Source: an uncultured Clostridia bacterium
Lineage (GTDB): Bacteria > Bacillota > Clostridia > Christensenellales > CAG-917
Length of the DNA stretch: 64,000 bases
Assembly: GCA_944358385.1 (NCBI GenBank)
Contig: CALVQW010000011.1
Location: 237-64,236, forward strand
Direction of reading: 5' to 3'
Both the position numbers and the translations under genes were made by a program. The notes under the pieces are model-generated. The model searched no databases and was not told the origin of the DNA. It worked only from the letters and a program-made list of their open reading frames with translations. How positions within the stretch are numbered: the first letter of the stretch is position 1; every line of letters begins with the position of its first letter. This document shows, in pieces, positions 13,143 through 38,926 of this stretch.

Positions 13143-16100
13143 TCAGTTGGTAGTTTCGCTGACGCCGCCATTGGGATCGACGGAGAAGGAGCGTGTATAG
13201 CCGACCTTGCCTGCGGGCACTTTCCTGCCCTTGTCGACATAGCCGCTCTGGATCTTGTCGCCGACACCCTCGCCGAGAGTCTTGTACTGGTCTTCCGCGG
13301 TGTCATAGCCGGTGATGGTCGCCTGAGAGGTGGTGGGCAGATAGCCGCCGGACGCCCAGTCGAGCACCTTGCCGTTGGCGTTGGTGACCGCGCCGATGTA
13401 CGGGGTGAGGACGTAAGTCGCCGGCCTGCCTGCGATCTTGGGAAGCGGGATGTTGCCGGAGCTGTCCGCATCCGCCGCGGAGAAGGAGACGATGTAGCTT
13501 GCGCCGTCAATGAACACCCTGCCGTACCACACGATGGAGTAGCCGTCGACGGACGCGCGGAGCTTGCCGTCGATGAGACCGATTTTGCCGTCGCCTTTGT
13601 ACTCACCCTTGGGCTCGACTTCGACGGAGATGCGGACGCGCTGACCGCTCTCGACGCGGATCATCGCATCGCCCGCGCTGTCCGTGCCGTTCTTAGCCAG
13701 CTCATAGGTGATGTTGGCACCCGTGGGCATCGTGGGGCTGAGGTAGCTGCTGATGCACCACTTCTCGGTGTCTGCATCCGTCCTCCAAACGTTCTTCCAG
13801 ACGATGTTGCCGTTCTCGTCGATCTCGGGATCCTGCACCGCATAGGTGATGCGCCACGCGTTGGGCAGGCTGAAGGTGGAAGGATCGTAGGGCTGGACGG
13901 TGTACTTGGCAGATGCGGTCTGACCGGTGTAGACATTGGGGAGCGTCGCCTTGTCCACGTCGATGGACCTGCCGAAGTTCTCGGAATCGGTGTTCACTTC
14001 AAACACCTTCTTCTCGCCGCCGCTTACCACCTGCTTGTTGATCTTGTCATACTCCTCGAGCATCGCCACCACCCTGCGGGAGACGAGGTATTCTATCTCG
14101 TAATCCTGCGAGTAGCCGTCGGGACCGGTGAGTCTTGCGACGAGGGTGACCAAACCGCCGAGGTAGTTGACGGTCATGTCGGTGTACACCCAAGTGAGGG
14201 TGAAACCGTTGCGGTCCGCGTCGTTGAGGTCGAACGCGACGGGAGCATCCATGCCCGTGATCTTGGCATAGACCGTCGGGACAGCCGCCTCAAGCTGAGT
14301 GCGGAAGGAGGTGATGTTGAACTCGATGGGATCGATGCAGGTCTGTTTGGGAGCCTCGCCGGAGTACTCGCCCTCTTTCCAGACGCGGCCGGTGGCGGGC
14401 AGGCTGTCGAGAAGCCCGTCCGTGTCGTCCGCGATGGTGGTGCCATCGACGATGGTGCGCTCGATGACGTTGATGAAGCCGTCCCAGGTGTAGTTCTGCG
14501 CGCCGAAGGGCGAGGACTTGCTCTCGGTGCCGTCCTCCGCCGTCGTTGTGACGACGGGAGCGGGGACGTTGAAGCGCACATCGAAGCTGCCGCCGCGATA
14601 GCTGTTGCGCACCGCCGCGAGGTTGATCCACTCGACCTCGACGCCATTGATGACCGCGCCGCTCTCCGTCTTGAGGTCCACCGTCTTGGGGATGTAGACG
14701 TAGTAGTCGAACACATCCACTTCTTTGCCTTCCACGACTTCCTTGCGCATGACCGGCTCGTCGATGTCAAGCCCGTCGAAAGGATCGAAGGTGTAGACAC
14801 CGTTCTTGAAGTTCTCCGCAAAGTAATCGGAGTTGCCCTTATCGCCGCCGAAGTAGCCCGCATAGCTGCCGTCGACCGCGGTGAAGGTGACATCGGTCAC
14901 TGTGCCGTTGACGATGCGGATGGGCATCGTGATAGTGCCGGTGACGCCGGAGTGCGTGGAGACGGTGACGGAAGTGTTCCTGTTGCCGCCGAGGTAGTTG
15001 TAGGTGATGCCGGAGTGGTTCCAGGTGAGGTCGCCCGCCGCGAAGGTGTACTCCGCCGCATAGACATAGGCGTAAGTGCCGTCCGCGTCGAAGTTGCCGT
15101 CCGCGTCATAGCGATAGCCTTTGCCGGAGGCATCCTTCAGCTCGACATAGCGAGGAGCGTCCATGTCCTCTGCCGTGCCGATGTAACTATCGAGTGCGGT
15201 CACGGGGACGAACCTGCCGTCGATGAACACTCTGACATTGCTTGTGAGTTTCGTGCCGTTGGTCTCGTGAGGCGTGGGCAGGAGATCGTCGCCCATATAC
15301 ATGTCTTTATAAGGCGCGAAGTCCTGATACGTGCCGACCGCCGTACCGTCGAGGTCGCCGTAGGCGATGTCGGAGAGCAAGTTGCCGGCATTGACGCGGA
15401 GGGCGGAGAAGGTGACTTCCAGCGTACCGCTGAACGCCGCCGCCGTACCCGAGGCATTGCGCAACTCATAGCCGCAATCCTTGGAGACCTCGCTCGCCGC
15501 CGACTTGACCTCGGGCAGATCTTTGATGTCGAAAGTGTACTCAATGACTTCGTTGCCCGCCTCGAACGTGACCGCGATCTTCACCGCCTCGTCCGTGCCG
15601 GAGAACACCTCCTCGTCCGCATAGCGGTAGACGTTCATGACGGTGATGCCGGTGGGCAGGTGGGTATCGCGGGAGTAGGACACTTCGATGACCTGACCGT
15701 TAGTCCTGTCCGCATAGCGGCGGACGTCGTCGGAGAACCTTCTGGTCTCCGAGACAAGCTTGAATGTGTCGGGCAGGACGATCTCGGTGTCGACAATGAC
15801 GCGCTCATTGATGACGATGGGGACAACCGCCTGATAGAGGTTGCCGTCCGCGTCCTCGAAGGTGGCGATGTTGTCGGGATACCTCGCGCCCGCGAGCGGG
15901 AGAGCCACGTCGGATGCGAGCTTGTCGCTCCAGCTCACGACGTAGACGGTGATCTCTCTGCCGTCCGCGAGTTCCACTTGGAGCGTGTCGCCCTTGACTT
16001 CTTCGGTCTCCCCGGTCTCCTCATTGACTTTGTCATAAGTCAGCGCGGGACGGTTCGCCGCGATGAACGCGCCGAGAGTGCCGTATTCCATGGGATCGAC

Positions 16101-19100
16101 GGACATTGCGCGGTAGGCGGGAGAGACGATCTCCGTTATGACGCCGTACTCCGTCGCGGTGTCGCCGCCTTCGGGAGTGCCGCCCTCCACCGCATCGTTC
16201 ACTTCCTCGTTGTCGGCGAGGGTGACGAGGACGTCGGTGTCCACGGTTTCGCCGGAGGCGGAGACGGTGAGATGCGCCACGTCGGAGGTGCGGGTGGTGT
16301 CATAGACAAAGCCGTTCCAATCGAACTTCGCCTTCATCGCCGTGCCGTCGGGCTGCACCACGGAGCCACTCTCGGGCATCGCGCCGTAGAGCTGCGCCGC
16401 GGTGGTGATGGTGTAAGTCATCACGCCGTCCTGCTGTGTCGCGGAGCTGCCGTCCGAGAACACATAGGTGTCGGGCGTGGGAGCGGGGGCGGGAGCAGCG
16501 GGTGTCGCCCACTCGAAGCCGCCCTCCTCTCCTATGGATATGGTGACGGTGACGGGCTGCGCCGCAGCGACAAAGCCCATGTTGTCGGGGACGTCTCCGA
16601 GTGCCTCTTTGACCTGATCCGCGGAGGGGTTCATCACCCACGCGTCTTTGACATTGATGAGGAAGTCATCCGCAAAGCCGCGCACGTACTCCCACGCGCC
16701 GCCGACGCCGAGGTCGGTCTCCTGCAGCTCCTTCCAGACATTGAACCCGTCCACATACATGGTGATGTCGACGGTGACATTCCTGCCGGGACGTCTGGCC
16801 ATCGCGTTGAGCAGCTCGGTGAGGTCCCATCCCACCACGGTGCGGGAGCCTATTTCGCCGCCGCGCCCGCCGTCCGCCGTGACGAAGTTGCCGCCCGTGA
16901 TGCCGACGAGGTCACGGAGGAAATACTCCTTGATCGCCGTACGAGCCTGTGCCAAAGTCATGTCGGTGAGACCGAGTGCTTCCGCAAAGACGCTCCAGCT
17001 GCTGTATGCGGTTTTGAATTTGGTATCCGTATAGTCGTAGCCGCTCTCCACGCTGTCGATGAGTGCGGAGGAGATGGACAGGGTGACATCATGCGTCTGT
17101 GTGGCGGAGAAGCCCCACTGATAGCTGATGCCCACGGTGACGGTCTCGCCGCCGTCCGTGCCGTCCCAGCCGTAGTCCAGCCCGTTGAGATCCCACGAGA
17201 AGGTGCCCACGGGCAGGACGCCGCCGCTCAACGCCGTGTCGATGACATAGTAGTCCACGCCGCCGAGAGTGACTTGCTCAAGCTCATCACCGTTCATCGC
17301 CGCGAGCGCGGTGTAGAGAGGATAGATGTTGTAGACGCCGTTGGTCTGCTGATATTGCCCCGCGCCGGTGCGCAGCACTGCGGTGAGCGGGTTGCCTTCC
17401 GCATCCACAGCCTGCTTGCCGAACACATAGCCAGTGCCGTTGCGGAACTCGATGTAGACGAGGTCGTCCGCGATCGCGGTGTCGCCGCCCGCCCAATCGA
17501 GGGAGACCGCAGCACCCTTGCCGCCCTTGTCCACTTCATAGACGCCCTCGAAGTACTGGCCGCCGGTGACGTAGACGGGGATCATCGCCACGACGAGGTT
17601 CAAAGCATAGCCGTAGACATAGCCCGCAAGCCTGTTGTTTTCCTTAAGCGCGGAGGGGCTGAAGTCCAGCGCACCCGCATCCCAGGTGATCGGGACATTG
17701 TGCGCGCCGCCGCTCTGTCCGACGAGTATCACGTTCGCCGTCGTGGGCAGATTCGCTCCGAGCAGCAGATCCGCATTCAAAGTGCCGGAATTCACACTGC
17801 TGCCGTTGTTGTAGACGGTCGCGCTCTTGGTGCCGACGTCGTCCACCTCTATGGAGTAGCCGTCCAAGCCCAGCGAGCCTCCCGACAATCCGGACGCTTC
17901 CAGCAAGCTGAACAAGCCTTCGCCCGAGAACTTGGACACTTTGTTGGCCTCGTCAGGCGTCACCAGGTTGCGCGGGTTGATCGAGAGGACGTACGCTTCT
18001 TTAAGCGTGCCGTGCGAGTTGTTGTTGTTCGGATCTTTGTACAGCGTCTGGTTAGATATCTCGCCGCCGCTGTCGTTGACGCCGTTCAAGGTCTTGCCGC
18101 CGTTGTACTCGTACTTCTCGGCATTGACCATGAGTTCGATAGCCTGGATGCCGGGCGCGACCACCCTGCCGTCATTGAAGCCGTACATCTCAGCCTGCGG
18201 GTTAAGGTCGATGTAGATGTTGAGTGACGGGTTGGGCGAGTCGTCATAGCTGGCGAAGGTGGGCAACAGCGTCGAAATGAGCGCGGTCAAGCTGCCGAAG
18301 GCCTTCCTGACATCGCCCGCCAGACCGCTTACGAACGCACCGAGGTGGTAGAGGTCACGGATAACCCAGCTGAAAAGTGCGACGGGTATGGATCTCACGT
18401 AGGGCGTGAGCAATTGCACTCTGAGTTCCGTCTTCTCATGCTCCGAAATGCCCTCGATGTAGTCGATGCTGTCAAGCTCCGCAAACAGGTTGGATATCAC
18501 CCACTGACCGGGACCTTCGCTGTTGCTCGCGTTGTGACGTCTGATGACCTTGCTGAAATCATAGTTTGACTCCAACAAAGCTCCGCCCATCAACCATTGC
18601 GGTCCGTCGTAGGAGAAGTAGTAGAACTTCGTGTTGCTTTCGTGTGCCGCCACGCCGGTGCTGAGGGTGCCGCCGCCGTCGATGTTCAATGTCGTCTGAC
18701 CGTTGACGTCGATAGCGACATGGAAGAGAGAGAGGATGGTCGTATAGAGGAAGATCATCAACTCATTGTAGCCGTCCTTGGTGAGTTCCACCTTGACAGA
18801 GACGAGAGACGCGTCCGTCTTGGCGGGATCACCGGGATCGACATAGTCCATACCGGAGAGGTAGGGCTGATAGCCATTGCGGTTGAAGAGATTGACCTCC
18901 ACCTTGTTGACAAGCCCGTTCAGGATGGACATGAGGTCGCCGTCCTTGTAAGAGTAACCGGAAGTCCAGCTCGTGCCGTCCTCGGACTTGGCGTACTTGT
19001 ACGGCTTGTTGACATTGGTGGCAGAAGCTTTGGCAGGTGTGGTAAAGCTCGACGCGTAGGTGAGACTGTTGTCGCCGGTATAGTCATTGGTGACGACTTT

Positions 19101-22100
19101 GCCGTTCTGCATGTTGAGGCCCACGCCGTACAGCTGCGTCCCGTCAGCCGAGGTATGGGCTGCGCCATCGGAAGCGGTGGTGGCGACAGGCGTGCCATAG
19201 CTCCAGCTGCCGGTGTCACGATCGTCGCCGTAGGCAAAGCTCGGGAAGAGCTGCCCGCTGCCGATGACGTGACCGAGGTCGATCCAATTGAGCAAGCCCA
19301 TGGCATCTCCCAATCCGTCTGCCCAGCCCAAGCTGCCGACTTCCACATCCGCAAGGACGGCGTTGTTGTTGCCGAAATACACGGTCGCCTTCATGGTCTC
19401 GTCGCTCGCGCTCTCGGGATGATTTGCCGTCAAGCCGAGGGTGATCATGTAGTCGTTTATGCTCGTTGTGCCGCCCAAAGCACCCAACCCGTTTCCGGTG
19501 CGGCCCACGAAACCGTATGAGGACACGAGCGAGACGGTGCTGTTGGTCTTGACCTTCTTCGCCTGCAAGTCACGTCCGACACCGGTGTAGCTTTTGCCGG
19601 TAGTGTCGAGTATCACCGTCTCCGCCCTTCTGTCGATGTTGATGGAGAGGTTGGGATTGATGCCTTCCAGCAAGCTTTGCAGCAGAGTCATGACGCCTGC
19701 CGTCTTGGAGTAGGTGATGCCCGCAAATTGCTTCTTCACCTTGTTGACGAGGTCCTCGGTGTCGAGGGTGTTCTCCAAGCCGAGGGCGAGGTCGTCTATG
19801 GTGAGGTGCAAGCCCGTGCCCGCGCCGTCCACCGTGGCGTCGAGGGAGATGGAATCCACCGACGAAGTGCCGAAGGCGAAGGCAAGCTCAAGGCTCTGGA
19901 TGTCGGGCAGCGAGCTGATGCCCGCAGTGGCGAGCGTCTCGCCGAGCAGGTTGTTGAGCACGAAGTCGATGAGCGACTTGTCGATGTTGATGCCGATGTA
20001 GTTCTCCGCAAGGTCGATGCCGAGCGCGATGCTGATGGTGGTGGTCTCCTCTGCGGGGGCATCGGTGTCCTCAGGCTCCGCCGCAGTGGCGGCACCGCTC
20101 TGATAGACGCCCTGATAGGCGTTGCCGACATTGCCGCCCAGCAAGCCCGCTATGCCCTGGAACTTGATCTTGCCAAGCCCCAAGCCGCTTGCGTCGATGT
20201 AGATGGCATCGCTGAACGCACCCTGCTGCTGAGCGGTGAGTTCCGCCTCGGCTTTGAGGTCGTAGATGTTGCCCTGCTTGACCAGCCTGGAAGAGCCGAG
20301 ATAGTACACCTCAAGGATGGTGGTGTTGAAAGGCTCGCCCAGCGTGACCGCCACGCGCAGGTCGCTGAACAGGATGCCGCCCAAGCCCGCCGCGATGATC
20401 GCGCCGAGGTTGATGTTGGCTTCAAGCTCGATGCCGAGGTTGATGTCGCCGGAGGCGAACGTCGCCTCGATCATCGTCGTGCGATAGAGTTCGGGATAGT
20501 CCGAATAGTTCCTCTTCGTCTCACCGTCCGTGTCGAGGAACTGCGCCGTGTCGCCCGCAATGGTGGTGCCCACTTGGTTGTAGACGGTTGCACCGGTGCT
20601 GTCCTCTCCCTTCGTATAGAGCGGACCTTCGTATTTGATGTATTCCTCATCCGCCGTGGTGAAGGGGGAGACGAAGAAGCTGTTGGCACCCAGCATATCC
20701 GTGAGCAGCCCGATCACCCAGCCCGCGAGAGAGTTGTCGTAGTCATCGTCACCGGGCTTGAGACCTTCGCTGGTCATGGAGAGATTGATGTTGCCGGTCG
20801 CGGAGAGAGTGAGGTCGTCCGCAAGGTCGCCCGTATCCACATTGAGCAGCTGCTTGTAAGCCACTTCCTCGCCGTCCTCTCTGACGATGTAGTCGCCGGT
20901 GTCTTTGTTGAAGTAGAGGTCATCCGTGGTGTAGATGCGCTCCGTGCCGATGTTCACCTTGGTGATGTCGATGGAGACGCCGAAGTCCTCGGACATCTTG
21001 AAGTTGAGTGCCAACATGCTGCCGCCCTTGCCGCCGCCGTAGGACTCCAGCATGATGTCGCCGAGGTCGGGCAGCTCAAGGTCGAGGGCGAGGTCGGGAT
21101 TGTCCGCGTTCACCTTCTCGATGATGGCTTGCACCGCCGCCAGCGTCAGTTGCAGCGAGAAGTAGCCGGGATTGATCATCGCGGCAATGTAGGCATAGTC
21201 ATGCAACGTCATGCCCGCCGCGGTGTCGATCGCCGCTATGCTCGCTTCCCCGCTGCCCTGTCCGACGGAGTCGAACACGCCGCTGAGCGCGTCTTGCAGC
21301 ATGGCGGTGAGTCCGAGATCGGAGATCCTGGCTTTCACGGTCTCGCCCAGCACGCCGCCGAGGTCGATGTAGATGGCGTCATAGGCAAGGATCACTCCCA
21401 AAAGTGCCACGTCACCGCGATAAACCGTCAGCTTGGCTTGCAGGTTGCCCGTGAAGTCGAAGTAGGCGTCCAAAGCCACCGTGAAGTATGCCTCGGTCTG
21501 ACTGCCGAAGTCGCCCGTGATGTCGAGCGTGAGGTCGGTGCCGACCAGCTCCACGCCGCCCAGGAGTTGTTTGAGCGCGTCGATGCCAAGCAGCATGTCG
21601 ATGAGTTCGCCGAGGTTGAGTCCGGAGCCTTCGTTGCCCCAGAAACCGACCTCTATCTCGGTGTGCAGCCTGATGCCCGGCACTTCCTTCGCGCCTGCAA
21701 TGTTGAGCATGTCTCTGTAACCGTAGATTCTCTGCCCTTCGCTGTCCACGATGCCCGCGGAGAAGGGCTGATTGACGCTGAGATACAGTCCGCCGAGTTC
21801 CAGCGCGATGTTCACGTCGCCGAGACGCACGTACTCACCGCGGATCTTGGACGCATCGAGGGCGTATCTGATATCATCGGTCACCTCGCCGCCAAGAGCG
21901 GTGTACCTTTCCGCAAGCATATAGGTGCCGGCGTATTCCACCATCACCTTGTTGCCGTCCTCGTCTACGCTCTCGAAAGAGCCGAGGTCGGAGTCTTCCG
22001 GCACGAGGATGTACTCACCTTTCGGATCGGACTTGAACGCGCCATTTTTGTAGGACTCCTCATAAGAGAGATCAGTGAACACGGGCTTGCCGTCCTCGAT

Positions 22101-25100
22101 GCCCGTGAATTCGTAACGGGTGCCCAGCCACACCTCCGCGGGAGATGCGTTGGGTGCGAGGGCGTACTCCGAAGTGGAGATGATCACGCTCACGCGGGGA
22201 TCGTCAAGCTCATAGTCATTCGTGCCGTCGGTGTAGACCGTCTTGGACACGGTGGTCTCTTCGCCGCCTTCCTCCGTGGGAGGCACGGTCACCGTCCTCT
22301 CCACCTTCTCGAGCAAGGTGTAGGTGACGTTGCCGTCTGCGTCCTCATGCGCGATCACGCGAGCCTCGCCCAGGAATTCGGGGAGGTTGTCCGCGTTGAT
22401 CTTGTACACGCTCTCTTTGTAGAGCAGGTTGTTGAGGGTGTCGCTGCTGCTTGCGTTGCTCAACGCCTTCTCGATCTCGGAGACGGAAGCAAAGTCGTCA
22501 AAGCCGCCCACGATGCCCAGCTCCACCTTGACGGTGAGGTCCGCGTCGCCGACAAGCAGCTTGATGCCGCTGCTGTCCGCACCGCCCGTCACCTTGAAGG
22601 TGGGCAGATATTTGATGTCCTCTGCGGGGAATTCGGGGACAAGCGCGCCGATAAGCCCGCCGAGCAGATCCTCCGTGATGCCCACGGAGAGCATATCGTG
22701 AGTGAGGATCACTTCACCCAGCAACAGATCCAGCACGCCCCAGATGTTGTCGGGGACCATGCCCACGTCTTTGCCCGTGGTGTCGATGACGATGCCGCCG
22801 CCGCTGCTTTCCGCCGCGATCACCGCTTCATCCGTCGCGTCTTCGGCTGCCGCCTCGACGGGGATGAGGTCTATGAGACTGATGGCGTTCTCCAGCTTCA
22901 CGCCCTGCGCGAAGAAGTCGCCGTATTCGCCCGTCAGCCCCGTCACCGTGCCGAGATCGGGCGCGATGAGATAGATGTTGAGGTAGAGTTCGTCATCGTC
23001 GGACACTTCCACCCACAGCTGGATGGGAGCGGCGTCCGCGATCGCCTCACCGAAGAAGTTGGTGTCCAGCGCGATCTCAAGATAGATCATCGCGCCGCGC
23101 AGCATGGGCAGGATGTCCGCCGCCGCCACGTTGCCGCCCGCAAGCAGCGAAGGCAGTGCCTCGAACACGCCCTCCGTCTTGAGACGCACCGCGAGCTTGA
23201 TGTCCATGCCGATGGCGGACACGAAGTTCGCACTGTTGAGTGCCATGGAGGACAGCATCATCGCAAAGTAGTCCTGCGTACCGCCGTCCACGCGCATGAG
23301 TTCCGTCATCTGACGCGTCCAGTTGATCGCGTCACGGAAGCTCAGGTCGAGCGAGAGTTCCGCACCAAGCTCGATGCTGCTCAGTCCGCCCGCCTGCACG
23401 CCTTCCAGCACAAGGGCGAGCGCGTCCACCGCGCCGCATGCGCAGACGTGAGTGACCGCGTCATATTCGTGCTTGTGCGTGGGATCCTTCGCCAAGTTCT
23501 CGTTGCCCTTGGAGTTGAGCAGCGTGCCGAGATCGAGGCTGAGGATGTTCTGATAGTTGCCGAAGACGTCCGTCTTTCTGTAAAGACCGCCGCTCTCCTT
23601 CACATAGAAGCTCGCCGCCACGACGACGTTGTCGACCGCTTCGATGTTGCCGTCCGTGTCGATGTTGAGCTTATCGAACACCGTCTTACCGCTCTCGGTG
23701 GCGAGGAGTGCCTCGCGCGCAGGCCCGTTCGACCTCAGGTTGTTGAGACGGACGTAGAGCAACGCCGTGCCCTTGCCGCTGCCGTCGCCGAGATAGTCGA
23801 TGTAGTTCCCTGCACTGCTCGCGTTGAGCTCAGTGCCTATGCCGGAGTAGCTCAACGTGCCGAGGTCGGAGAACCTGTCGCCCGCGGGTGCGGTGTAGTT
23901 CAGGCGATAGAGGTTAAGTTTCCCCGCCACCGCGTCGTATGCCGCCTTGTCGAGCAGAGGCACGTAGACGGTGCTTTCGGTGTTGGACACCAGATGATAA
24001 CGCTCGCCGTCGGGAGCGGTCGCTCTCGCGTAGTCGCTCACGAAGAGAGTGTAGGTGGGTGCATCGTCATAGACGTACACCGCATGATCCTTCGCGTGGG
24101 CGAGTGCCGCAACCTTGCCGCCCTCGATGACGGCGTACTCCTTGTCCTCCGTGGTCTTGTAGAACACGGTGCCTTCGGGAGCAGCCTTGATGTCATCCTC
24201 ATCCACACGGGAGAACATGCTCTGATAGAACATATACTCCTTCACCTTCGCCTCGAAGTTCGCCTTTGACAAGTCGGCGTAGTCCTCCAAAGAACCGAAG
24301 GAGATCTGCATGCCCGTGGTCTTGTCGCTCGTGCCGAAGAGGTTGAGCGTGAGACCGAGATCGAGCAGACCGACGTTGTCATCGTTGAACAGCGTCGCGC
24401 CGATGGTCAGATCGTACGGAGCGGCACTGATGTCAACGCCGATGGAAAGATTGGGCAGCACTTCGTTGAGCGTCGCCGCCGTGTTGGGAGCAAGCATGCC
24501 CACCAACAGTTTCAGGAAGCCCGCGCTCGCCTGCAACGCGATCTTGCGGGAGAAGATGTTGAGCAGGACGGTCGCTCCGTCGGGATCCACCACTTCGTTG
24601 CTCGCCGCCGCAGTCACCGCTTCGCCGGAGCCGTCGGGAGCGGTCTCATCGCCCTTCTGCAGACCGCTCAGCACCTTATCGTTGAGCAGCTCTTCCACGG
24701 TGTATTGCGAGAGGTCTACCCTCACCTTGGCACTCGGACCGAAGAACCAGCTGAGGTCCACATAAAGTGCCGCGCTGTTCACGACGTCCTTGCCCGTCTG
24801 ATCCTCGCCGACGCCCACATCGGTGTTGTCGCCGATGTTCCAGACATCGCTAAGGTAGTACAGACCGAGGACATGGGTGAGCGTGCCGTTATCCGCCTCG
24901 GTGCGCCACAGGTCGATGGCAAGCTCCAAGCCCGCGACGTAGAGAGTGTCGTATGCGTCCTCCGCCGAGGAACGATAGTCGATCTTGACGGTGGCGCGGA
25001 TCTCGAAGGGCAGCACCGCGCTGTATCCTTCGTCCACTATGAAGTCGGCGTCCAACTCGCCCACGATCGCACCCAGCACTTTGCCGAGTTCCGTCGAAGA

Positions 25101-28100
25101 GGCGGTGTACGCATAGTATTTGTCAAGCCCCGCGTGCTTGGTCGCGTCGTAGGGGACATACTCCCCTCTCACCAGCGCGTATGCCTGTGCGGGCAGAGCA
25201 GCCTCGCCCCCCGGATACTCGTCCTTGGTGAAGTAAGCGACGTGCTGACTCAGCGAGATGGAGCCGCGGATGACGACATTGATGTAATACAGCTCGCCGG
25301 TGTCGCCGTACACGATCTTCTCGCCTTCGTAGAACACCGCCGTGCCGTCCTTGCTCCTGTAATTCTCCGCGAGATAAGCCTCAAAGCTATCTCCCTCACC
25401 CGCGACAGCCGTGTAAGCCTCGCGCGCCGTCGCCACGGACACGAAGCCTTCCGCCTCCTCGTCGTAGACGAAGGTGGCGTCCTCGTTCTCGCCCGCGGCG
25501 ATGTCGAAGTCGTCGATGATGTTGTCCGCATACACTCTGTACTCGGGCACCGTCACGAGAGAAGTGGTCGCATTGCGGGTGTAGTTGCCTTTGCCCTCGC
25601 CCACATAGCGGTAAGTCTCGCCGTACTTCTCCTTCTTGTAGACGTCCGCTTCGTTGATGAGGATGTATGCCGAGAAGCCTTCACCCACCGCTCTCACGTG
25701 CAGGTAGAAGTCGCCGCTGTAAGGATTGGTCTGGAAGGCGTCCCACGTCTTACCGGTCACGGAACTATACACGCCGCCGTCAAGCACCTTGAGGTCGTTC
25801 TGCGTGATCTTATAGTAATGTCCGCGGTAGTAGAGGTAGTGGCTGCCGTCGTGTGCATTCGCGGTGTCGTGAGTGTAGGTGAAGTTCTCCTCCATCACGT
25901 ACGCGCCATTGCGCTCGCCCACTTCCTCATAGGTGTAGCGTGCCGCATCCGTCACGGGCATCTCGATGCCGAGACCGAGATTGTGTCCCCACAGCCAGAT
26001 GCTCGCCTCGATCAAAGGCTTCTTGTTGGCGGAAGGATAGACGACGTAGATGCTGTCGCCCGTGCCGAGTTCCGCAAAACCGTCCTTGTCGAGGCCGGCG
26101 TTTTCCTTGGCGTATATGGCGTCCGGCGAGTCGAGATCGACATAGAACTTGTAAGTGCCGATGAGAGCCTCGTTGGCGATGTCGCCCCCGTCCTCATACG
26201 TTTCGGCACGCACCCAATCCGTGTTGGACGCCTCGGAGGCAAGCACCTTCTCGCCGCCCACGTTGAGGTAGACATCGATGGGCGTGATGTCATAGAACTT
26301 GCCGCCGCCGTCGATGTAAGCCTTCTCCTCCGCGGGAGTCATGTCGGAACGGAGCTGATAGTAGCTCTCCTCCGTCGTCTGATCGTAGTAGAGATAGTAA
26401 GTGCCGTCCTCGCTCTCCTCTATTGCGAAGCGGGTGTCGGAGAACTCGATCTCATCCGTCGACGCACTGCTTATCTGCGCATAGAGGTAGTTGTTGACAT
26501 CGACATTGATGCCCACATAGGACTGATCGAACACCATATCCTCCGCGAAGGGAGACTCGCCGAGCAGTATGGTGAGCAGCTGGTTGAGATAGTCCGTCTG
26601 CACCAGGATCCTGATGTAGGTGGAAGTGATGCGGATGCCGAACAGGAACGCCCTGACATATGCCGCGATCTGCTCGGTGAGCAGAGGCAGCTCAAGGTTG
26701 ATGTCCGTGCCGAGCAGCGCGCCGAGGTCGATGGGCAGGCTGAAGCCGCCACCCTCCGTAGTGCTTCCGTCGCCGGCAGGATCCGCCGCCGTGACCGCCT
26801 CACCCTCGGAGAGGGAGAGGGGCTGATCCATCAAGCCGCTGATGAACGCGAGCAGCTCGGTGAGGTTCATGTACACTCCGGGCTGTCCGAAGTAGCTCAG
26901 ATCCACATAAAGTCCCGCGTGCTCGCGCACCACGGTGCCCTTCTCGTCGGGATAGAGGAAGGAGTCGTCACGCGCATATCTGCCGTGTTCCTTCTCGTTG
27001 TACATGATGCCCTTTTCCGCAAACTTGGAGATGAGCATATAGCCGTCCGCCGTGCCGTCGGTGTCTTTCTTGACGCCCACATAGCCGTACAGACCGTTGT
27101 CCGCAGCGAAGTAGTGCGAGTAGCGGTCGAGCGTGACATTGCCGTCATAGTCCTCGACGGGAGTGCCCTCGTTGTCGCCCAGCGTGAAGTAGACGCCGAG
27201 CAGAGTGTGCACGGGCGTGCCGTCATTGGACGTGGCGGAGATCTCCACCGACGCGTTTGCGAAGTTGAGGAAGTCCTCAAGACCGAGGAGGTCGTCCACA
27301 TTGGCGTCCTCGTAGTAGATGCTGCCGCTCGCATCGGGCACCTTCTTCGCGCCGATGAGACTGCGGATGACGTTGATGAAGGTGATGAGGTCGATGTCGT
27401 CGCCGAGGGCTTCGAGTGCCACCCTGATCTCTTCGCCGTCCTCCGTTTCCTCTGCATAGCTGAGGTCATACCTTGCCGCCAGGCTGCGCAGATAGTTGAT
27501 GAACGCGCCCAGCTTGAATTCCAGCGACACGGTGATGTCGATGCCGCGCAGGATGTCGGAGACCGCCGAGTTGTTGTTGTCATCGCCCGTCACGACGTCG
27601 ATCACCGCATCGAAGTCATACTCGCTGTCCGGGAAGAGATATTCGAGCAGCGCGGTAAGATCGATGGGACTGTCGCCCGCGAAGAGCAGATCCAGCGAAA
27701 TGGTCTCGCTCAGCGACACGGTGTCGAGGCTGTTGAAGTCGTAGAACTCCTCCAGCTCGTCACGGTCCAGCGTGAAGTCGCGCGTCTCGGTGAAGTAGAG
27801 GTCGATGTCCCCCACATTCAGATCCAGCGTGAGGACGGTGTCGTAGTCGTTGGCGTTCGCGTCCACCGCGGGGATGAACAGGAACACGTTGTCCTCCACC
27901 TCCGCCGCGGTCTCCGTCCTGGTGTACAGCGTCGCGGACGCGGGCTTCACCACGCCCGTGGCGGTGCTGTCGAGGTAGGCGTCCTTCTCTTCGTCGAAGA
28001 ACCACTTGTCCTCATCGCCCGCCGCGTAAGTGTAGTACACCCAGCCGTTGTTTTCCGCATTCCTTGCAGCCTCGAAACGCTGATAGAGGATGATCGCGGA

Positions 28101-31100
28101 GCCTTCCTCAAGCCCGTCGCGCGTCTCGGCTTGGTTCGCCTCACGGTACATGCCCGTGTCGGAGTCGTAGATGAACAGTCCCTCGGCGGGTGCCGAAGTG
28201 CCTGCGAATTCCTTGAAGATGTAGTATCTCGCGCCGTCCGCCGTGGTGTTTTCGGTGTACAGCTCATAGCGGTCGCCTTCCAGCATGAGTTCCGCACCGA
28301 TGCCGATGTCCAGACCGTTGTTGAGGTCGAGGGTGATCTCCAGACCGCCCTGCAGATCCTCGTACACGAAATCGTCAAGCGTGTAGTCGCCGATGACGAT
28401 GACGGAGAGCAGATATCTCATGAGCGCGTTGCCGATCGCCACGGTCAGTTTGCGCTTGCTCACGAGAAGCGACGCCACCTGCTCCTCGAAGGAGAGGTCG
28501 GAGTCAAGCTCGGGAGACTGCTCGTCCGCCGCGGTGACAGCCTCTGCGGAGGAGCTGCCCACCTCGACATCCTGATAGATGGAGTCGGTGAGCAGGTCGT
28601 CAACGAGACCTTGCAGCATATCCGAGATCTCGGTCATGGGCACGGAGAGCTTGGGCAGACCGAAGAAGGACAGATCCAGATAGAGCATCTCGTTGAGGTA
28701 ATGCGCCGCAAGCCAACGCACTTCCGCGCCGGACTCGGAGGAGAGGTTGTACAGCTCGATCTGCACTTCGGAGGCGGGCAGATCGAACATATCCAGCACG
28801 AGGGTGAAGTCCAGACGCAGGTGCGCCGAGGAGTAGCCCTTGCTGGTGTCCGGGATCTGCACGACAAGGTCGCCGAGATCGCCGAGGAGACCTTCCAGCA
28901 TCTGTCCGAAGTTGATGTTGCCCTCGGTGATGGCAAGCTCGATCTCCACTGCGCCGCCCACCGTGATCACGGAGTCATAGAACGGGAGCAGAGGCACGTC
29001 GTAGTAGTACTCGCCGTCCGCCGCGGGCGTTTCCACCTTGGTGTAGACGCCGTTCTCGTAGGTGTAGGCATTCGCGCCTTCCGTGCCCGTGTGCTTGGCG
29101 GGAGCTTTGGTCTTGCCCTCGCGCACATAGTCGGGAAGCAGCGAGCCGGTGTCGCCGAAGTCCAGCGTGATGCCGCCCAGAGACAGCCCCACGTTCATCG
29201 TGCCGATGTGCGCACCGAGAGAGAGATAGAATTCGCTCAGTTCGGTGTAAGGACGATAGACGCGCAGATAGCCGCCGTCCGCCTCGCGCACGTAGCCGTA
29301 CTTGCGGTCGTAGGTCACGACAAAGCCGTCCCCGCCGAGTTCCACCTCCGCGTTGGTGTTGCCGCGGTAGGCATAGACCGCGGTGTTGGCGGGAACTTTC
29401 GCGAGGTCGGTGACCAACACTCGCCTGTCGCCGTCCAGAGTGTAGAAGGTGTAACGGTCGCGTGCGAGATACTCCTCGCTGCCCTTCACCTTGACATAGC
29501 TGCCCGCAAAATCTTCTTCCGCGGGGGCGTAAGCTGCGGTCTCGTAGAGGTTGTATCTCAGCGGATCCGCCTTATAGAAGTTGCCGTCCTTGGCTTTGTA
29601 GTAGAGCTGTCCCTTGCTCGCCGTCGTGGCGGAAACGAGGTCATACCTCTGCGCGTCGGAGCCGTTTGCGGGTGTGAAGCCGATGATGCCGCCCTCCGCG
29701 GCCTCTACCGCCACATATTCGCCGTCTGCGCTCTCGGTCGCGGCAAAGACCACTTCGTTTTCCTCGGAGATGTCTACATAATCATATCTGCCGATGTCCA
29801 CGCCGAGGGAGACTTCGAATTTGTCGAAGATGTCCGCAAAGCTGCCCAGGTCGGGCAGGAGCGTGGCAAGCACCATGCTGATGATGCTCTTGGTGAGCAT
29901 GATCTGCATCGCGCTGTCGGAGTAGATGAGTTGCAGCATCGCGTTGCGGATGGCGGTGGTGTCGCCGTCCGCCGCAGTGACGCTCTCCGCCGCGGAGAAC
30001 GCCTGACCGCTGCCCTCGTCGGGCGTGGTCTCGCCGCCCTCTTCGGGCATAGGCTCGTTGCATCCGTCGCACACGCCGTTGCCGTCCTCGTCAACGTGCT
30101 GATGCGTACTCTGACCGAGTTTCACCGCATCCAGCACGAAACGCAGGAAGTTCGGGACATAGGAGTAGTTCTCCACCACGTCGAAGATGCCCGTGCCGTC
30201 GAGATAGAGGTTGCCGCCGGAGATGTAGATGCCCGCGAGCACTTCATCCGTGATGTTGCCCGTGATGTCGATGTCCAGCAGCTCCAGAGCCACTTCGATG
30301 GTGTTGAGGTCGGAGCCTTCTATGAATTTCGCTATCTTCTCATCGGTGGTCTTGATGGAGGAGTCCGCAAGCACGTCGAGCGCGAGTTTGCCCAGATCCG
30401 CCGAGAGAGTGAGACGGAAGCCCACACCGTCATTGAAGGCGGCGTCCGTCTTAAGCTCGAGGATGATGTCCTCGATGTACTGTTGCAGGAGGGAGCCGAG
30501 GTCATAACTGCCCTCGCCGTCCGTCTCGAAGTTCACCTTGCCCGCAACGGAAAGCGTCACGCGCTGAGAGCCGAGGTCCGCATCGGGCAGACCGAGTTCG
30601 GGCTTGATGAGTCCCGCCACGTTGTACACCGCGGCGGTCATGTCCACAAACGTGCCTCTCTCGCCCGCACTGAGCAGGACGGACTGAGGAGTGGCAACGT
30701 CGATGACCAACCCCGCATTTGCGGAGACGGAGAGATCGAAGCCCGCGTTGGAGCGTGCGGACACCACGAGTTCGATGCCGCTCGCACCGCCGACGTTGAG
30801 GCTGATCTTGCTGTCGTTCTCGTCGAGGATGAAGTCCTCGAAGACATAGCCGTCCTTGCCCGTGGCGAATGCCACGATGTTGCCGAGGAGGTTGGCGGGC
30901 AGGAGGACGTCAACGCCGATGCCGTCCGAGAAGATGTTGCCGCCCGCTATCGCGGAGCCGACATTGTTGCGCAGCACGACCGCGCGCACGAGGGTGTTGA
31001 GCAGACCTTCGACGTCGAAGGAGCTTTCTTCCCCGCTGCTGCCGTCGCCCTCCGCCGCGATCACCGCCTCGCCCGTGCCGCTTGCCGCGTCACGTGTGAA

Positions 31101-34100
31101 GCCCGCAAAGAGCTCCACGCCGAAGTCTTTGAGCAGCGTGAAGAGATCCGCACTGATCCTGGGACCGCCGAGAGGCGCAAGATCGATGTAGATGTAGCCG
31201 TTGATGAGATAGATGGCGATCGCACCGCTGTCCGAACCCTGTTCGGGGTTGAACACGATCTCGATCTCCGCCTGCAATGCGGAGAGGATGTCGAGAGCGG
31301 AAGGTTCGGGGAGAGTGAAGTCCGCAAGAATTCCCGAAAGCCCCAGCTTCTCGAGGTCGAGGAGACCGCTGATGTTGATGTCGAGGCTGTCGCCGATGGG
31401 ATCGTCGAGATAAAGCTCGATGCCGAGGGACGCCAGCAGAGCGTTGACCAGCTTGGAAAGCGTGGCTTGATCGGGATCGTTGCCCAGCCCCGCAAGCCCG
31501 TCCGCTATGGCGGGGACGTCAAGCAACACGTCCACTATCTCGGAGAGGCTGAGCGGACGGCGGACGTAACGCCCGTCATTGGACTGCATGTAAGAGCCGT
31601 CGTCCAGCTTGATGTACCTGTCTTCGAGATCGTAGTTGCCGATCTCATCCTCGCTCACCAATTCATAGGTGGCGTCGGCGGAATATTCCACCGAAAGGTT
31701 GAGACCGAACTTCGCCATACTGCTTGCGGTATAGCTCTGGAAATCATCGCGCGCCGCGATGTCGCTGATCTTGCCGTGCACTTCCTCATTGACGGAGTTG
31801 GTGACGTAAGGTTTGACGATGGAAATGCCCAGCGACGCATACTTGGTGTCCACGCCGATGTTGACGGCGGGAGTCTCGAAGTCGATGTCCACCACCGCTT
31901 CGGCATCCAGACCGAGTGCCGCGAAGATGGCGTTGATGTCGGGCTTCTCCTCCGTCGTGGCGGAGTCCTCACTGCTGTTGTTCGCCACCGCGTCGATGAT
32001 GGCGAGTATGACCGCCTCGGTGACGCTGAGCGCGATGTGACCTTCTCCCGCTTCGAGGACGATGTCAAGCGCGGTGAGAGCGTCTTCGCCCTCTTCCCCT
32101 TCCGCTGCCGCCACGGCTTCGGAATTAGAAATACCCTGCTGCCCCGTCTTGAGCAGCTTGTTCACCGCCTCGGTGATCTTGCTCACCACGCCGGTGTTCT
32201 CGATGTAGAAGTTCTTGTCCGAGAGCATGCCCATGTCGACATACAGCCTGTCGCCGCGGATGTATGCCGCAAGCACGAGCGCGTCCGCACTGTCGGGATC
32301 GGCGTTGCTGTCCAGCACTTCCAGCGCGATCTCGGTGGCGTCCGCATCCGAGAAGTGGATGTTCGCTCCGAGCTTGATGTCCAGACCGAGCGTGAGATCG
32401 TCGTCGATGGACACGCCGAAGTCGAGAGCGATGCCCGCTCCCGCCGCCGCGAGGATGTCGCCGAGAGGCAGTTCGCCGTTGACGAGATCCGCAGTGTCGC
32501 CGAGAGAGAGTTCGAGAGAGAGCGTCGTGGAGAGAGAGACCACGCCATCGCTGTCAAAGATGTTCTTGAACTCGACGGAGTCGAATCCCTCGCCTTTCAC
32601 CGTCTTGGTCTCGTCGTTGATGGCAACGCCGATGTCACCCAGCGAAAGCCCGATCTTGACGGGATCCGCCTCAATGCTGAGGTCGATGCCGATGTCCCTC
32701 TGCGCGCCCTCGCCCGCTCCGTAGTAGAGGGTGAGGAAGCTGCCCGCGGGATCGAGTTTCACGAAGTTTTCGGGATCGATCGCCACGCCGGAACCGGCGA
32801 GGAGCATGTTGAGCAGAGAGGAGAGGAAGTTCGCGCCGAAGCCGACCCGCAGCTCCTCGTCATTCATATAAATGCTGTTGATGATGGCAAGTATGCCGCC
32901 CAGGAGGTCGGTTTCTTCGCCGCTGCCAGAGCCGCTGCCGCCTTCCGTGCCGTCGACCGCGATCGCCGCTTCGGCGGGTGTCTTGGTCTGCTGATCGTCA
33001 CCGGTGGTTTTGCCGTCATCGGAGGCGAACAGCCCCGCGATGTCGATGCCGGGCACGATGATGCCGCCGCCGATGATGCCGCCTTCGTCGGAGTAGATGT
33101 AAAGGTCGCTGCTGCCCGTCGTCTCATCCGCAAGGATGTAGAGGGCAAGGAGCGTCCTCCCGCCTTCGCTTATCTCCAACGCGATGTCGGAGTGCGAGAG
33201 TATGTAGCTGACCAGAGTGGGATCCTCGGTGTCGATCACTTCGGGGAAGCGCAGGAGCGCGCGCAGCGAGAAGTCAAGCTCCGCGGACACGCTCTTGTCG
33301 ATGACGAAGGAGAGCACGAGTTTCTCAATGAGAGACTTGATCTCCTGAGACACGCCGCCTTCCGTGCCGGAAGTGCCGTCGTCAACGGTGAGGAAACCGC
33401 CTATCCAGCTGCCGATGGTCCATTCGGTGTCATCGTCCGCGGCGAGGGCTTCCAGCGAGATCTTGCCGGAAAGCTCCGCATAAACACTGTCGATGTTGAG
33501 TCCGGCGAGGTCGAGCTGGTTGTTTTCGTTGAGCAGCACGCCGATGTCTTTGTAGTCGGCGGGATCGAACGTGGCGGGCAACACCTCCGCATCGTCGAAC
33601 ACTTCCCTGCCCAGCCCGATCTTGAACGGAGAGAGCGTGACCTCAACGGAGCCGAGTTCGCTCGCCTCCACGCGTGCTTTGAAGAGATAGTCCTCGGTCG
33701 CGGTGCCGTCATGCTTCGCCTGGCTGATGAGGTTGCTCCAATTCAGGCTGAGTGCCGCGTCGATCTCTCCGAGCGCGTCCGTGCCGAGAGCCTCCTCGAC
33801 AATGGCGGTGAGAGCCTCCGCAAGTTCGATGGTAAAGCCCTTGGAAGTGACGTGGAGCATGATCTCGAAGATGCCCATGGCGTAGTCCTCTTGGTAGAGG
33901 TCGTCCAAAGTGGGCTTTTCTTCATCCGCCGCGGAGACAGCCTGTCCGCTTGCCGCGGGCATGGCTTCGTTGCATCCGTCGCATATGCCGTCATCGTTGA
34001 GATCCGCATGCTCGTGCGTGATCATGCCGATGAGCATCTCCATGATGTCGAGCTTGGTGCTCACGCGTGCGCCTATGAGCGCGTCCGCGTCAACATAAAT

Positions 34101-37100
34101 CGTACCGTCCGCATAATAGGCGGCAAGCAAGGTCTCCAGCTCGCCGTCCTGCATATTCGCCCTGTTGACGAGAGCGATCGCAAGTTCTGTCTCGTTGGTG
34201 TAACCGTCGGGCAGCGTCCCGCCCGTGAGCGCGGCAAGCAGCGACGCGATGTCCAGCTTGCCCTCCACGGTAAGGGCGAGATCGATGTCCATGCCCGTCG
34301 GGAAGTTGATGTAGGCGTCCTCGGTGAGTTTGATGTTGTTTGCATCGATGTCCGCAGCGAGTCCGAGTTCCAGCGAGACATAGACGTAAGGATCGGCAAA
34401 GATGTCCACAAACTCACCATCGATGGCGGGTATGCTGCTCTGCCCGTTGATGGCGGCATTGATCCCGCCGAGGGTGAAGTCCAGCCCGAAGTTCTCGCCG
34501 ATGCCGAGCGTGACACCCACGGAAAGCCCTTCGGAAGTGTCCTCGCCCGCGAGTTGCAGACCGTCATTGAACTTGATGATGACCGCGGCGTCCAGATCGA
34601 GAGGATTGCCCACCGCGTCCTCGATGACAACGCCTTTGACGTTCAGAAGATCGAGGAGGATGTCAAGCAGCCCCGCACCCAGCGCGACATCGAGATAGAG
34701 GTCGCCGAGAGTGACGTCCGCCGCCGCGATGATGGGGACGAGTTCCTCGGGTATGGTGGGGATGTTAGTGCTGCCGCTGCCCGAGCCGCCGCCCGTCTGA
34801 CCTTCGTCCGCGACGGAGACCGCCTCGGACGCGGAGGATGCGGCGAGGAAGGGCGTGATGTCCGCCTTGACGGAAAGCCCGCCGAGCAGTTTCTCGGAAG
34901 TGTTGAGATAGATCACTCCGTCCACGAGCCACACGCGCAGAGGAGTCGCACCGCCGTCCTTTTCGGCAAGTTCGACATAAAGGTTGATGGAAGGCAGCAG
35001 ACTGCCTATCGCAGAGGCGATGTTGCCGCCGGAGAGCGCACCTATTAGTGCCTGCACGTCGGTGACCTCGGCTTTCAGCTTGAGTGTCGCATCAACGCCG
35101 AAGGACTCCGCAAAGTCGGCAAGCACCGCCACCAGGAATTGGTTGGAGTTGGCGTAGCCGATGTTTGCGAATGTGCCCGCCACCGCGCTGAGGTCGAGGT
35201 CCGCCTGCAGACCTATCTCCAAGGTCTGCACATTGGCAAGCACCTCGTTGAGGTCGAGATTGCTGAATGTGAGCGATCCCGTCTTAGGATCGATGAACGC
35301 GTCAAAGGAGGAGAGCCTTATGTACTCGTTGCCGGTAAGGTCCGCCGCAAACTCGGCGAACGCGGCGTCGAAGTGATCTCTGTCCGCCACACTGCCCACT
35401 TGGAGCGCGATGGTCACACCCGCGGAAGCGAACTGCGTGGGGATCTGTTCCAGCCCCACCGCCGCCGCGAGGTCGAGATCGAGGGAAATGATCTTGGGCA
35501 GACCGAACCCGACATCCTCGTACGTGATGTCCACGCCGCCGTCGATGGGGATCTTCACGCCCGCATTTTCGCCCGTGAAAGCGATGCTCCAGATGTAGTC
35601 GAGGATCTCCTGCGTGAGAGCGATCTGCACCTTCTCAAGGTTGAAGATGTTGCCGTCCATCTCGACGACGATGTTGTTGAAGATCGCCTTGACAAGCCCC
35701 ATGGTGTCCGTGATGGGTTCCCCGGACTGGGTGGCGGCTATCTTGCGCACCAGCTCGCCGCTTGCAAGCTGACTGTCGATCTCGGCGACAAGCTCCTCAT
35801 ACTGCGCCGTTTCCGCCGGAGTGAGCAGCCCCGCAATGGCGTCCTGCGCCTTTGCGACAAGGTCCTCGACGAGTCCGCCGAGGAGTTTATTGAGATTGAC
35901 GCCGTCCACATAGAATTTGCCCGTGCCGAGCAATCCGCTGAGGTCGGCAAAGAGCATCTCGTTCTCGCCGCTGTATCCGATGCGCGCGCGCACATCCTCT
36001 GCCCTTGCGCCCGTGAGTTCGACAAGCAACTTGGTGTTGGCGTTGTTGAACATGTCGATCTCCGCACTGATGTGCAGCTGCAACGTCCTCTCCAGCCCGT
36101 CGAGATTGATCTCGTGGTCGAGAACGGCGGCAAGGCTTTCCCTGACTTTCGGATCCAGACCGAAGAGAGTGCCGAAGGAGTCGATGAGTTCGTTGGGAGT
36201 GATGCTCAGCTGTTTGAGTGCCAGGTCGAGGGAGATCGTGAGATCGAGAGTGAGAGGAGAATACTCCGTAAGCTCGGCGACATTGATCCCTCTGTCGGTG
36301 ATGAGATAGCTCTCCACGTCCGCCACGGCGAGATCGGTGTCATTGTTCCACTGTATGCCCTCGCCGCCGAAGGAGATGTCGATGCGGCTCTGCTGGCTGC
36401 CGTAGATCTCCTCAAGCTCCGTACCGAAGGTGTCGAAGTCCACGCCGATGCCGAGGTCGACCGCGGCAAGTTCCCTGCCCTCGCCGTTGTCGGCGGTGAG
36501 ATCGGCAGTGAGATAGATGGAAAGATCCTGTATGCTGGAAAGAAGTGCGAGATCGATGCCCAGGATGTCCTCGACAAGGTCATAGACATCTTCGGGGATC
36601 AGGCTGTCGGGACCGGGAGTGAGCAAGCCGCCCAGCACCGTGCCGAGCAGTCCGGAAAGCGGGACGGGCATGGTGAGTTGCTGGGTGCCGTCGGGATTGG
36701 TGACAAGGCGGGAAGGTCCGAAGAGGGCGGGGAGCGCGCTCATAACGCCTGCGACGATGCCCTCGTCCATGGTGAGAAGATCATTGAGAATGAATTGTGC
36801 AAGACTCTTGTATTCGTCGCTGCCGGGGGCGGAGAGAAGTTCGCGCAAAGTCCTGACCACGGCAGTGGCATTGATGTTGTCCGTCTTGACTATGGTCGCA
36901 CCCGATCTCAGACCGGTGCAGTCGTAAACGAGGGTGGAATCGTAATAATAGACGCCCAGGAGCACCTCGGAAAGATTGCCTTCCGCATCCTTCTTCCACA
37001 GCTCGAAGAGGATCTGATTGCCCGTGTCGCTCTCAAGGTCGATGGCGGTCTGCACCTTGAACGCGTAGGAGTAGCCCACCGCGTCTTTTGCATAGTCCAG

Positions 37101-38902: not shown

Positions 38903-38926
38903 ACTTCCTCCTGCGGCGATGCCGCA

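Follow-up and report, generated by a model that had tools for sequence, protein, structure and literature searches.

A giant predicted lipoprotein of an uncultured gut Clostridia bacterium, built of diverged strand-rich modules with a short conserved motif in their linkers

The DNA stretch described here (the window) comprises 64,000 nucleotides from an uncultured Clostridia bacterium, positions 237 to 64,236 of contig CALVQW010000011.1 in assembly GCA_944358385.1, and its main feature is a gene for an extremely long protein made of related modules. The guanine-plus-cytosine (GC) content of the window is 55-63%, and its table of open reading frames (ORFs) is dominated by a single minus-strand ORF at 13143..37352. 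An initial annotation had described the region 20076-34826 as a chain of modules joined by linkers with a recurring heptad of the type E-A-V-T-A-A-D. This region sits in frame within the ORF, and its ends are the outer edges of the last and the first heptads. The gene and its terminal parts are given below with window coordinates, strand, and amino acid (aa) positions of the protein.

13143..37352 (-): giant ORF, 8,069 aa, ATG start; intact single-frame orthologues of >8,000 aa in three Clostridia metagenome-assembled genome (MAG) contigs
37281..37352 (-): lipoprotein signal peptide and lipobox, MRKVKFALLFVLILCLTVGILTA followed by C, aa 1-24, as read from the sequence; all full-length family members have an equivalent
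13146..18962 (-): C-terminal region without modules, aa 6131-8069; no junctions, no Pfam match, and no PDB match

One real, conserved gene of the uncultured gut bacterium encodes this predicted 8,069-aa lipoprotein. The protein has abundant L, G, A, and D, is very acidic with 1,264 D+E versus 474 K+R residues, and contains 12 Cys. A homologue search with aa 801-2102 as the query retrieved eight metagenomic proteins that have neither a Pfam domain nor a name on record. Three syntenic loci on their contigs carry the same gene in the same neighbourhood, with the gene broken by frameshifts. In addition, three uncultured Clostridia MAGs were identified among species-representative genomes, and in all of them the orthologue is one uninterrupted frame of >8,000 aa. 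The six orthologues, three of them intact ORFs, share 45-52% amino acid identity with the window protein, and orthologue alignments reach within 21-72 residues of its C-terminus. The plus-strand ORFs opposite the giant gene (24705-35048 and others, up to 3,447 aa) are an antisense artefact of GC-rich codon usage and constitute a trap for gene callers.

The giant protein is a predicted lipoprotein, which would be anchored through the lipobox Cys. Its N-terminus reads MRKVKFALLFVLILCLTVGILTAC and has the features of a bacterial lipoprotein signal, with a positively charged n-region, a hydrophobic h-region, and a lipobox of the type [LVI][ASTVI][GAS]C in the succession MRKVK, FALLFVLILCLTVGI, and LTAC (aa 1-24); the lipobox LTAC lies at aa 21-24. 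An n-region, an h-region, and the pattern [LVI]x[AG]C are common to every full-length family member, and all the members that start with Met and have at least seven junctions match the lipobox expression. A sortase-anchored LPXTG substrate is rejected, since the C-terminus, ending in ...SFSVDPNGGVSETTN, lacks LPXTG with a hydrophobic tail. The sole LPATG is found at aa 7651, about 420 aa before the C-terminus, and no hydrophobic tail lies behind it. The C-terminal 1,969 aa gave zero hits in a sequence search against the PDB, and Pfam detects Big_4 Ig-like domains C-terminally in 3 of 13 distant relatives. A polymorphic toxin is also rejected, because the orthologues align almost to the C-terminus, no toxin family of Pfam is matched, and the downstream gene encodes a Mem_trans transporter.

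The modules, about 15 in number, are very diverged paralogues with 15-25% identity. Alignment of the 12 heptad-bearing junctions shows a shared closing motif, ..LxxYYxDGxLYVDLxxLGGxxxxxxDI, and after it, in this order, a short helix, the variable G/S/E/D linker that contains the heptad, and a strand with an LLxxLL helix. Self-BLAST between module ends gives E = 1e-4 to 1e-10, and hhalign comparison between modules, with profiles from orthologue alignments, gives 60-96% probability. Moreover, a module hidden Markov model (HMM), seeded with aa 1380-1830 of the orthologues and iterated for three rounds, recruits 359 instances, and thus all the modules are homologous. The initial annotation had proposed modules of variable length with conserved edges, and had asked whether their similarity goes beyond compositional bias. 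Both points are answered by these data, which show about 15 homologous copies whose similarity is significant beyond composition. The closing motif that it had read is present in the 12-junction alignment as a hydrophobic residue with Y-[VIL]-[DN], then G.., then ..[KR].D[IL], and the β-strand with an LLxxLL amphipathic helix that it had placed after each linker is found there as well.

The consensus module has ~280 residues, is rich in L, G, and D, and is built from strands that are strictly amphipathic (LxLxLxL), together with a few amphipathic helices. It begins with a strand and the amphipathic LLxxLL helix, continues with a meander of long amphipathic strands, and ends with the YYxDGxLYVDL hairpin, one strand, and a short helix. 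The module lengths range from 277 to 719 aa. Modules M02-M08 have 277-350 aa with 2-4% Tyr, and M09-M13 have 471-719 aa with 4.6-9% Tyr. The variable interiors are therefore explained by Tyr-rich segments inserted into interior loops of the canonical ~280-aa module. The modules are as follows.

36828..37280 (-): M01, partial, aa 25-175; closing hairpin GVYYYDSTLVYD with no heptad after it; HMM match 73-186
35793..36827 (-): M02, aa 176-520; closing motif MLFADLSGLLGTGKFYVDG, then a degenerate linker
34827..35792 (-): M03, aa 521-842; closing motif RVWLVDGVIYLNTSEKLLGGLSVKADI at 34854-34937
33945..34805 (-): M04, the most canonical, aa 850-1136; C-terminal half with a predicted local distance difference test score (pLDDT) of 72-84, a meander of long strands
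32973..33923 (-): M05, aa 1144-1460
32121..32951 (-): M06, canonical, HMM seed, aa 1468-1744
31071..32099 (-): M07, aa 1752-2094
30000..31049 (-): M08, aa 2102-2451
28545..29957 (-): M09, with Tyr-rich insert, aa 2466-2936
26802..28523 (-): M10, with Tyr-rich insert, aa 2944-3517
24624..26780 (-): M11, the longest, 9% Tyr, aa 3525-4243
22830..24602 (-): M12, aa 4251-4841
21249..22808 (-): M13, aa 4849-5368
20097..21227 (-): M14, aa 5376-5752
18963..20075 (-): M15, aa 5760-6130; recognisable only in its N-terminal strand/helix part

In the Tyr-rich insertions of M09-M11 (about 24624-29957, aa 2466-4243, 7-9% Tyr), hairpin-like patterns of the type Y-x3-[DN]-G-x-Y recur. The insertions are reminiscent of repeats that bind cell walls or glycans, and they matched no Pfam family.

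A profile of the 12 junctions, built from the window protein alone, was scored against all 1.84 billion representative proteins. It detects 113 clusters (50% identity) at E < 1e-3, with 61 of them below 1e-10, and many of the clusters are 5,600-7,900 aa long with 10-14 matched stretches each. For the ten clusters that were looked up, the names are limited to 'hypothetical protein', from MAGs of uncultured Eubacteriales/Clostridia, and a single 'carboxypeptidase-like regulatory domain-containing protein'. A word-indexed search with a 36-sequence profile returned a single protein and none of the >5,000-aa relatives, as L/G/D-rich words apparently swamp its prefilter. None of the papers covered by a literature search describes this giant lipoprotein family.

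The module represents a strand-rich domain of ~280 aa that has no earlier description. Pfam and NCBIfam give no family for the whole 8,069 aa at E <= 0.1, Pfam at E <= 10 gives no recurring family on 36 diverged modules, and the module profile has zero hits among PDB sequences. The lack of a match in Pfam, NCBIfam, and PDB makes the ~280-residue module a new domain family, and it bears out the view of the initial annotation that the architecture is unusual, in that no known repeat family is matched. The AlphaFold model of aa 1390-2130 from an 8-row alignment has a mean pLDDT of 37.5 and is unusable. With 30 rows of orthologous and paralogous modules the mean pLDDT is 59, and residues 220-365 of this model (aa ~990-1135) score 72-84, folded as a meander of antiparallel strands, each of 10-14 residues, with short helices. 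On the other hand, both linkers including their heptads have a pLDDT of 30-40 and no regular structure. Foldseek comparison of the 30-row model with the PDB gives no match below E = 0.26, the query having a mean pLDDT of only 59. The top matches, none of them significant, are the juvenile-hormone-binding protein, Takeout, BPIFA1, and outer-membrane barrels, and the first three have E = 0.26-2, a probability <= 0.11, and a TM-score <= 0.2. Mean-field direct-coupling analysis of 357 module instances recovers local hairpins only (closing, preceding, and N-terminal), and shows neither long-range topology nor a consistent coupling between heptad and module.

The linkers between successive modules have 30-100 residues, are acidic and Gly/Ser-rich, and tolerate large insertions and deletions. 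Strict E-A-V-x-A-A-[DE] occurs five times (aa 1745, 2095, 2937, 3518, and 4842), whereas composition-preserving shuffles yield 0.007, and relaxed copies bring the junctions with the motif to 12. In a 9-residue scoring matrix built from the orthologues only, with the window protein excluded, the 13 best scores across the 8,069 aa all fall at the 12 junctions, and 12 positions reach >=7.9 bits versus a mean of 1.27 in 200 shuffles. The linker motifs are listed below.

34806..34826 (-): L01, EAVSVAD, aa 843-849
33924..33944 (-): L02, QAVSAAD, aa 1137-1143
32952..32972 (-): L03, EAAIAVD, weak copy, aa 1461-1467
32100..32120 (-): L04, EAVAAAE, aa 1745-1751
31050..31070 (-): L05, EAVIAAE, aa 2095-2101
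29967..30005 (-): L06, double copy, QAFSAAE at 2450 and ESVTAAD at 2456, aa 2450-2462
28524..28544 (-): L07, EAVTAAD, aa 2937-2943
26781..26801 (-): L08, EAVTAAD, aa 3518-3524
24603..24623 (-): L09, EAVTAAA, aa 4244-4250
22809..22829 (-): L10, EAVIAAE, aa 4842-4848
21228..21248 (-): L11, EASIAAI, weak copy, aa 5369-5375
20076..20096 (-): L12, GAATAAE, aa 5753-5759

The initial annotation had counted the heptad 12 times at intervals of 0.85-2.2 kb within G/S/E/D-rich flexible sequence, and had called it strictly kept. The spacing is right (284-726 aa), and so is the linker setting, as seen in the 12-junction alignment. The count of 12 stands for the relaxed form detected by the orthologue matrix, while the strict pattern accounts for only five. 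'Strictly kept' is too strong, because position 4 is T/S in seven copies and I/A in five, and the motif fades in distant relatives. The control that it had suggested, a comparison with shuffled sequence, places the heptad far above expectation in both forms.

In the six-way orthologue alignment the motif is in place at 12/12 junctions, with the consensus [SG]-E-A-[VI]-[TS]-A-[AT]-[DEG]. The conserved island, [SG]-E-A-[VI]-[TS]-A-A-[DE], consists of six conserved residues in the middle of an otherwise hypervariable linker. Mean pairwise identity among the orthologues is 0.63-0.79 at five of the six motif positions and 0.47 at the V/I position; the flanking ~15 residues on each side mostly have 0.2-0.45. 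In the wider family (323 junctions), 20-88 residues separate the closing hairpin from the motif, and 13-63 residues separate the motif from the next module. The 12 copies use different codons, so the constraint acts on the peptide, and a DNA-level explanation by recombination or an RNA signal is rejected. The closing hairpin and the post-linker strand/helix persist across the whole family, unlike the strict heptad. Members of the close clade carry this heptad at 5-11 of their 11-13 junctions and distant clades at 0-2, and the latter often have a looser small-residue patch instead, e.g., SSALATAD or GSAVATAD.

Some linkers also contain a Cys/His mini-motif of the form [CH]-x-H-x-D-x(3-12)-D-G-x-C-D-x-C-[GN]-x-x-[MY]-P, which is present in the linkers of four orthologous loci (L003-L006) as well.

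33957..34016 (-): Cys/His mini-motif HEHADLNDDGICDGCNEAMP, aa 1113-1132, inside linker L02
30045-30104 (-): second copy, aa 2417-2436
23433-23477 (-): degenerate copy, aa 4626-4640

Among the orthologues the same junction has 0-3 copies on either side of the heptad, and the heptad stays. With four Zn-type ligands and a DxDxDG loop, the mini-motifs look like a mobile metal-binding mini-domain, and they have no Pfam match.

The heptad reads as a short linear motif, because it is conserved amid hypervariable sequence, keeps no fixed distance to the modules, has insertions on both sides, and is modelled as disordered. The reading favoured here, with about an even chance of being correct, is a membrane-tethered surface fibre of the beads-on-a-string type, in which the linkers expose this motif to another factor, most plausibly a protease. 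The lipid-anchored chain would reach out through the cell wall, and the fibre would present its C-terminal part outward in an adhesin-like manner. Lying in an exposed flexible tether outside any fold, the heptad would be read by another molecule, and the most likely reader would be a surface endoprotease that prefers small aliphatic residues. Acting on the linkers, such a protease would either divide the chain into pieces of module size or shed its outer parts. The motif is specific to one clade, and whatever reads the heptad was added later to an older architecture.

Among the readings of the motif, proteolytic processing is tentatively ranked first, at a probability well short of even. The small aliphatic make-up, A-V-T-A-A, with the acidic residue after it, resembles protease sites, and the setting in a disordered segment resembles that of the Mycoplasma P97/P102 proteins. 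Thr/Ser is often replaced by Ile/Ala, which argues against hydroxyl chemistry such as a cross-link or an O-glycan and leaves processing or binding; ester cross-linking on the heptad Thr is thus disfavoured. As read from the sequence, a putative cut after A-V-T-A would follow the A-x-A rule of type I signal peptidase, with V/I/L/A at -3 and A at -1 in most copies. The membrane-spanning h-region that such a site has 3-7 residues upstream is lacking. The upstream helix (DIMEMLIGMI, ELLAFISGLM) is amphipathic and is modelled within the module at a pLDDT of 72-81, and its spacer to the motif varies between junctions.

Several points weigh against a processed surface fibre. There is no direct evidence of cleavage, and no protease gene is linked to the locus. 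The confinement of the strict heptad to a close clade means that it cannot be essential for the basic function of the family. Cutting every linker would free all but the first module from the lipid anchor, and a further means of retention would be needed. Moreover, the β-branched preference at position 4 (T, I, V) also fits a short docking strand, and the AlphaFold model, confident only in part at a mean pLDDT of 59, is compatible with a docked motif. Only the Big_4 domains in 3 of 13 distant relatives point to an adhesin role for the C-terminal part.

The main rival is a structural one, in which the heptad, as a short strand, docks into a groove or onto an edge of the adjacent module and thereby stiffens the linker and fixes the spacing between modules, without any other reader. 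T, S, I, V, or A at position 4 is typical of a strand rather than a chemical site, small residues are present on both faces of the motif, and the junction unit of closing hairpin, linker, and next strand/helix is conserved family-wide. In contrast, both modelled heptads have a low pLDDT (30-40) without secondary structure, the spacers vary widely in length (20-88 and 13-63 residues) and accept whole mini-domain insertions, the coupling analysis shows no consistent link between motif and module, and distant clades retain the modules yet lose the motif. Docking is considered somewhat unlikely.

A further form of processing, regarded as unlikely, is a surface polyprotein. An exported precursor would be cut at the 12 motifs into about 13 paralogous proteins of 30-75 kDa and a distal piece of ~2,300 aa, which would be produced in 1:1 stoichiometry and assemble into a cell-envelope structure, and a dedicated protease would have evolved together with the clade-specific heptad.

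O-glycosylation is improbable. It would make the heptad a sequon whose Thr/Ser is glycosylated, perhaps with a hexosamine, so as to stiffen the linkers and shield them from proteases. At position 4, the orthologues most often have Thr or Ser, and the linker around the motif is exposed and has abundant Ala, Ser, and Gly. In addition, the following neighbours of the giant gene act on GlcNAc or GlcN through their GH20, PIG-L, and HGSNAT-like members.

38111-41616 (-): GH20 hexosaminidase, TTE1925-type mutarotase, and PIG-L deacetylase genes, on the strand of the giant gene and immediately upstream of it
42207-43103 (+): HGSNAT-like acetyltransferase gene

However, 5/12 copies of the motif in the window have Ile or Ala in place of Thr/Ser, and the locus neighbourhood has no glycosyltransferase, protease, or sortase. 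A matrix scan of the other reading frames and proteins in the window gave no convincing match outside the giant ORF, so a general sequon is rejected. The GH20, mutarotase, and PIG-L genes look like a hexosamine-utilisation or catabolism cluster, for which a cytoplasmic location is only presumed. A functional tie of these three genes to the giant protein is rejected on the same ground, even though they are syntenic in 6/6 orthologous loci.

Quite improbable is the view of the modules as binders of lipids or hydrophobic ligands in the style of TULIP, LolA, or β-groove proteins, with the chain as an extracellular carrier or conduit and the linkers as mere tethers. The long, strictly amphipathic strands and the amphipathic helices agree with it, as do the top Foldseek matches (juvenile-hormone-binding protein, Takeout, and BPIFA1), although these are non-significant and at noise level (E >= 0.26, probability <= 0.11, TM-score <= 0.2). 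The Pfam families of AsmA, TamB, LolA, and BPI are unmatched even at E <= 10, which for the models AsmA, AsmA_2, DUF748, and TamB holds on the 36 modules, and separate modules on floppy linkers form no continuous groove. The last alternative, mere compositional bias towards Ala, Val, Glu, Asp, Leu, and Gly in a long ORF that is spurious or chimeric, could appeal to a genome of 60% GC that yields long spurious antisense ORFs such as 24705-35048 (+) and to a protein rich in L, G, A, and D, but it is practically excluded and already refuted by the motif excess over shuffles (5 strict and 12 relaxed hits versus 0.007 and 1.27), by the intact ORF in three further independent assemblies at 45-52% amino acid identity, and by the 113-cluster family that the paralogue-only profile finds with 10-14 hits per giant protein.

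Giant repeat-built surface adhesins of bacteria include Ebh of Staphylococcus aureus, SiiE, LapA/MpIBP, and Bap. The window protein resembles them in having thousands of residues per chain, an anchor at one end, a very acidic composition, and a long modular stalk with a distinct distal region beyond it that has Ig-like domains, here Big_4 in a few distant relatives. In contrast, its predicted anchor is an N-terminal lipobox instead of LPXTG, a transmembrane helix, or type I secretion retention, and its stalk modules match no Ig-like, FIVAR, cadherin, or other Pfam repeat. Moreover, the modules are old, diverged paralogues of unequal length (15-25% identity) and not near-identical tandem repeats, and they are spaced by long disordered linkers with a conserved motif.

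Gingipain/HagA-type polyproteins of Porphyromonas gingivalis, a diderm with type IX secretion, are long secreted precursors that are cut between domains, and the pieces remain surface-associated. Gingipains cut at Arg/Lys, and the domains are of the cleaved adhesin and peptidase C25 types. Similar to them, the giant lipoprotein is one long chain of paralogous domains with conserved inter-domain sites, which are cleaved there and putative here. On the contrary, Pfam finds no cleaved adhesin or peptidase C25 domain in the giant lipoprotein.

The P97/P102 adhesins of Mycoplasma hyopneumoniae are cleaved at the motif S/T-X-F↓X-D/E in predicted disordered segments, and the fragments stay on the surface (PMC3322551). 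Both systems have a large protein with a short motif, followed by acidic residues, in disordered segments between functional regions. However, the heptad has small aliphatic residues and no Phe, so that S/T-X-F↓X-D/E is not matched, and the organism here is walled and has 12 regularly placed candidate sites as against a few. The modules also share long amphipathic antiparallel strands with helices, units of variable length, and disordered insertions with the repeating β-groove/AsmA-like and TULIP proteins, but there is neither a sequence match nor a significant fold match, and flexible linkers take the place of a continuous groove.

Giant modular surface proteins are already known. This one has a new domain family, a predicted lipid anchor that is unusual for this size class, unequal and anciently diverged modules, and the conserved linker motif. 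The family has at least 113 clusters at 50% identity, many of whose members have 5,600-7,900 aa, each taking about 24 kb of a small genome, and its module could enter domain databases straight away. The linkers are a clean natural case of a selected short motif in hypervariable disordered sequence, 12 times in this one chain. If the chain is processed at the heptad, it would be one of the rare polyproteins of bacteria; otherwise, it still represents a new architecture for very long lipid-anchored surface fibres in a Gram-positive-type envelope. This architecture is relevant to the contact of abundant uncultured gut bacteria with their environment.

Some minor observations concern the rest of the window. 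ARAGORN calls a tRNA-Pyl with anticodon CTA at 47510-47588 (+), which is probably a false call. Rfam has no tRNA at the gathering threshold in the whole window, and no pylS-like neighbour was seen. The ORFs at 9447-11831 (+), of 794 aa, and at 44724-46676 (-), of 650 aa, have no Pfam or NCBIfam match, and the latter has a 646-aa counterpart at the same position in two orthologous loci (L001 and L002). At 48446-50809 (-), a stand-alone condensation-domain protein (PapA-like acyltransferase) adjoins a BD-FAE/α/β-hydrolase esterase, and the two may form a small acyl-transfer pair.

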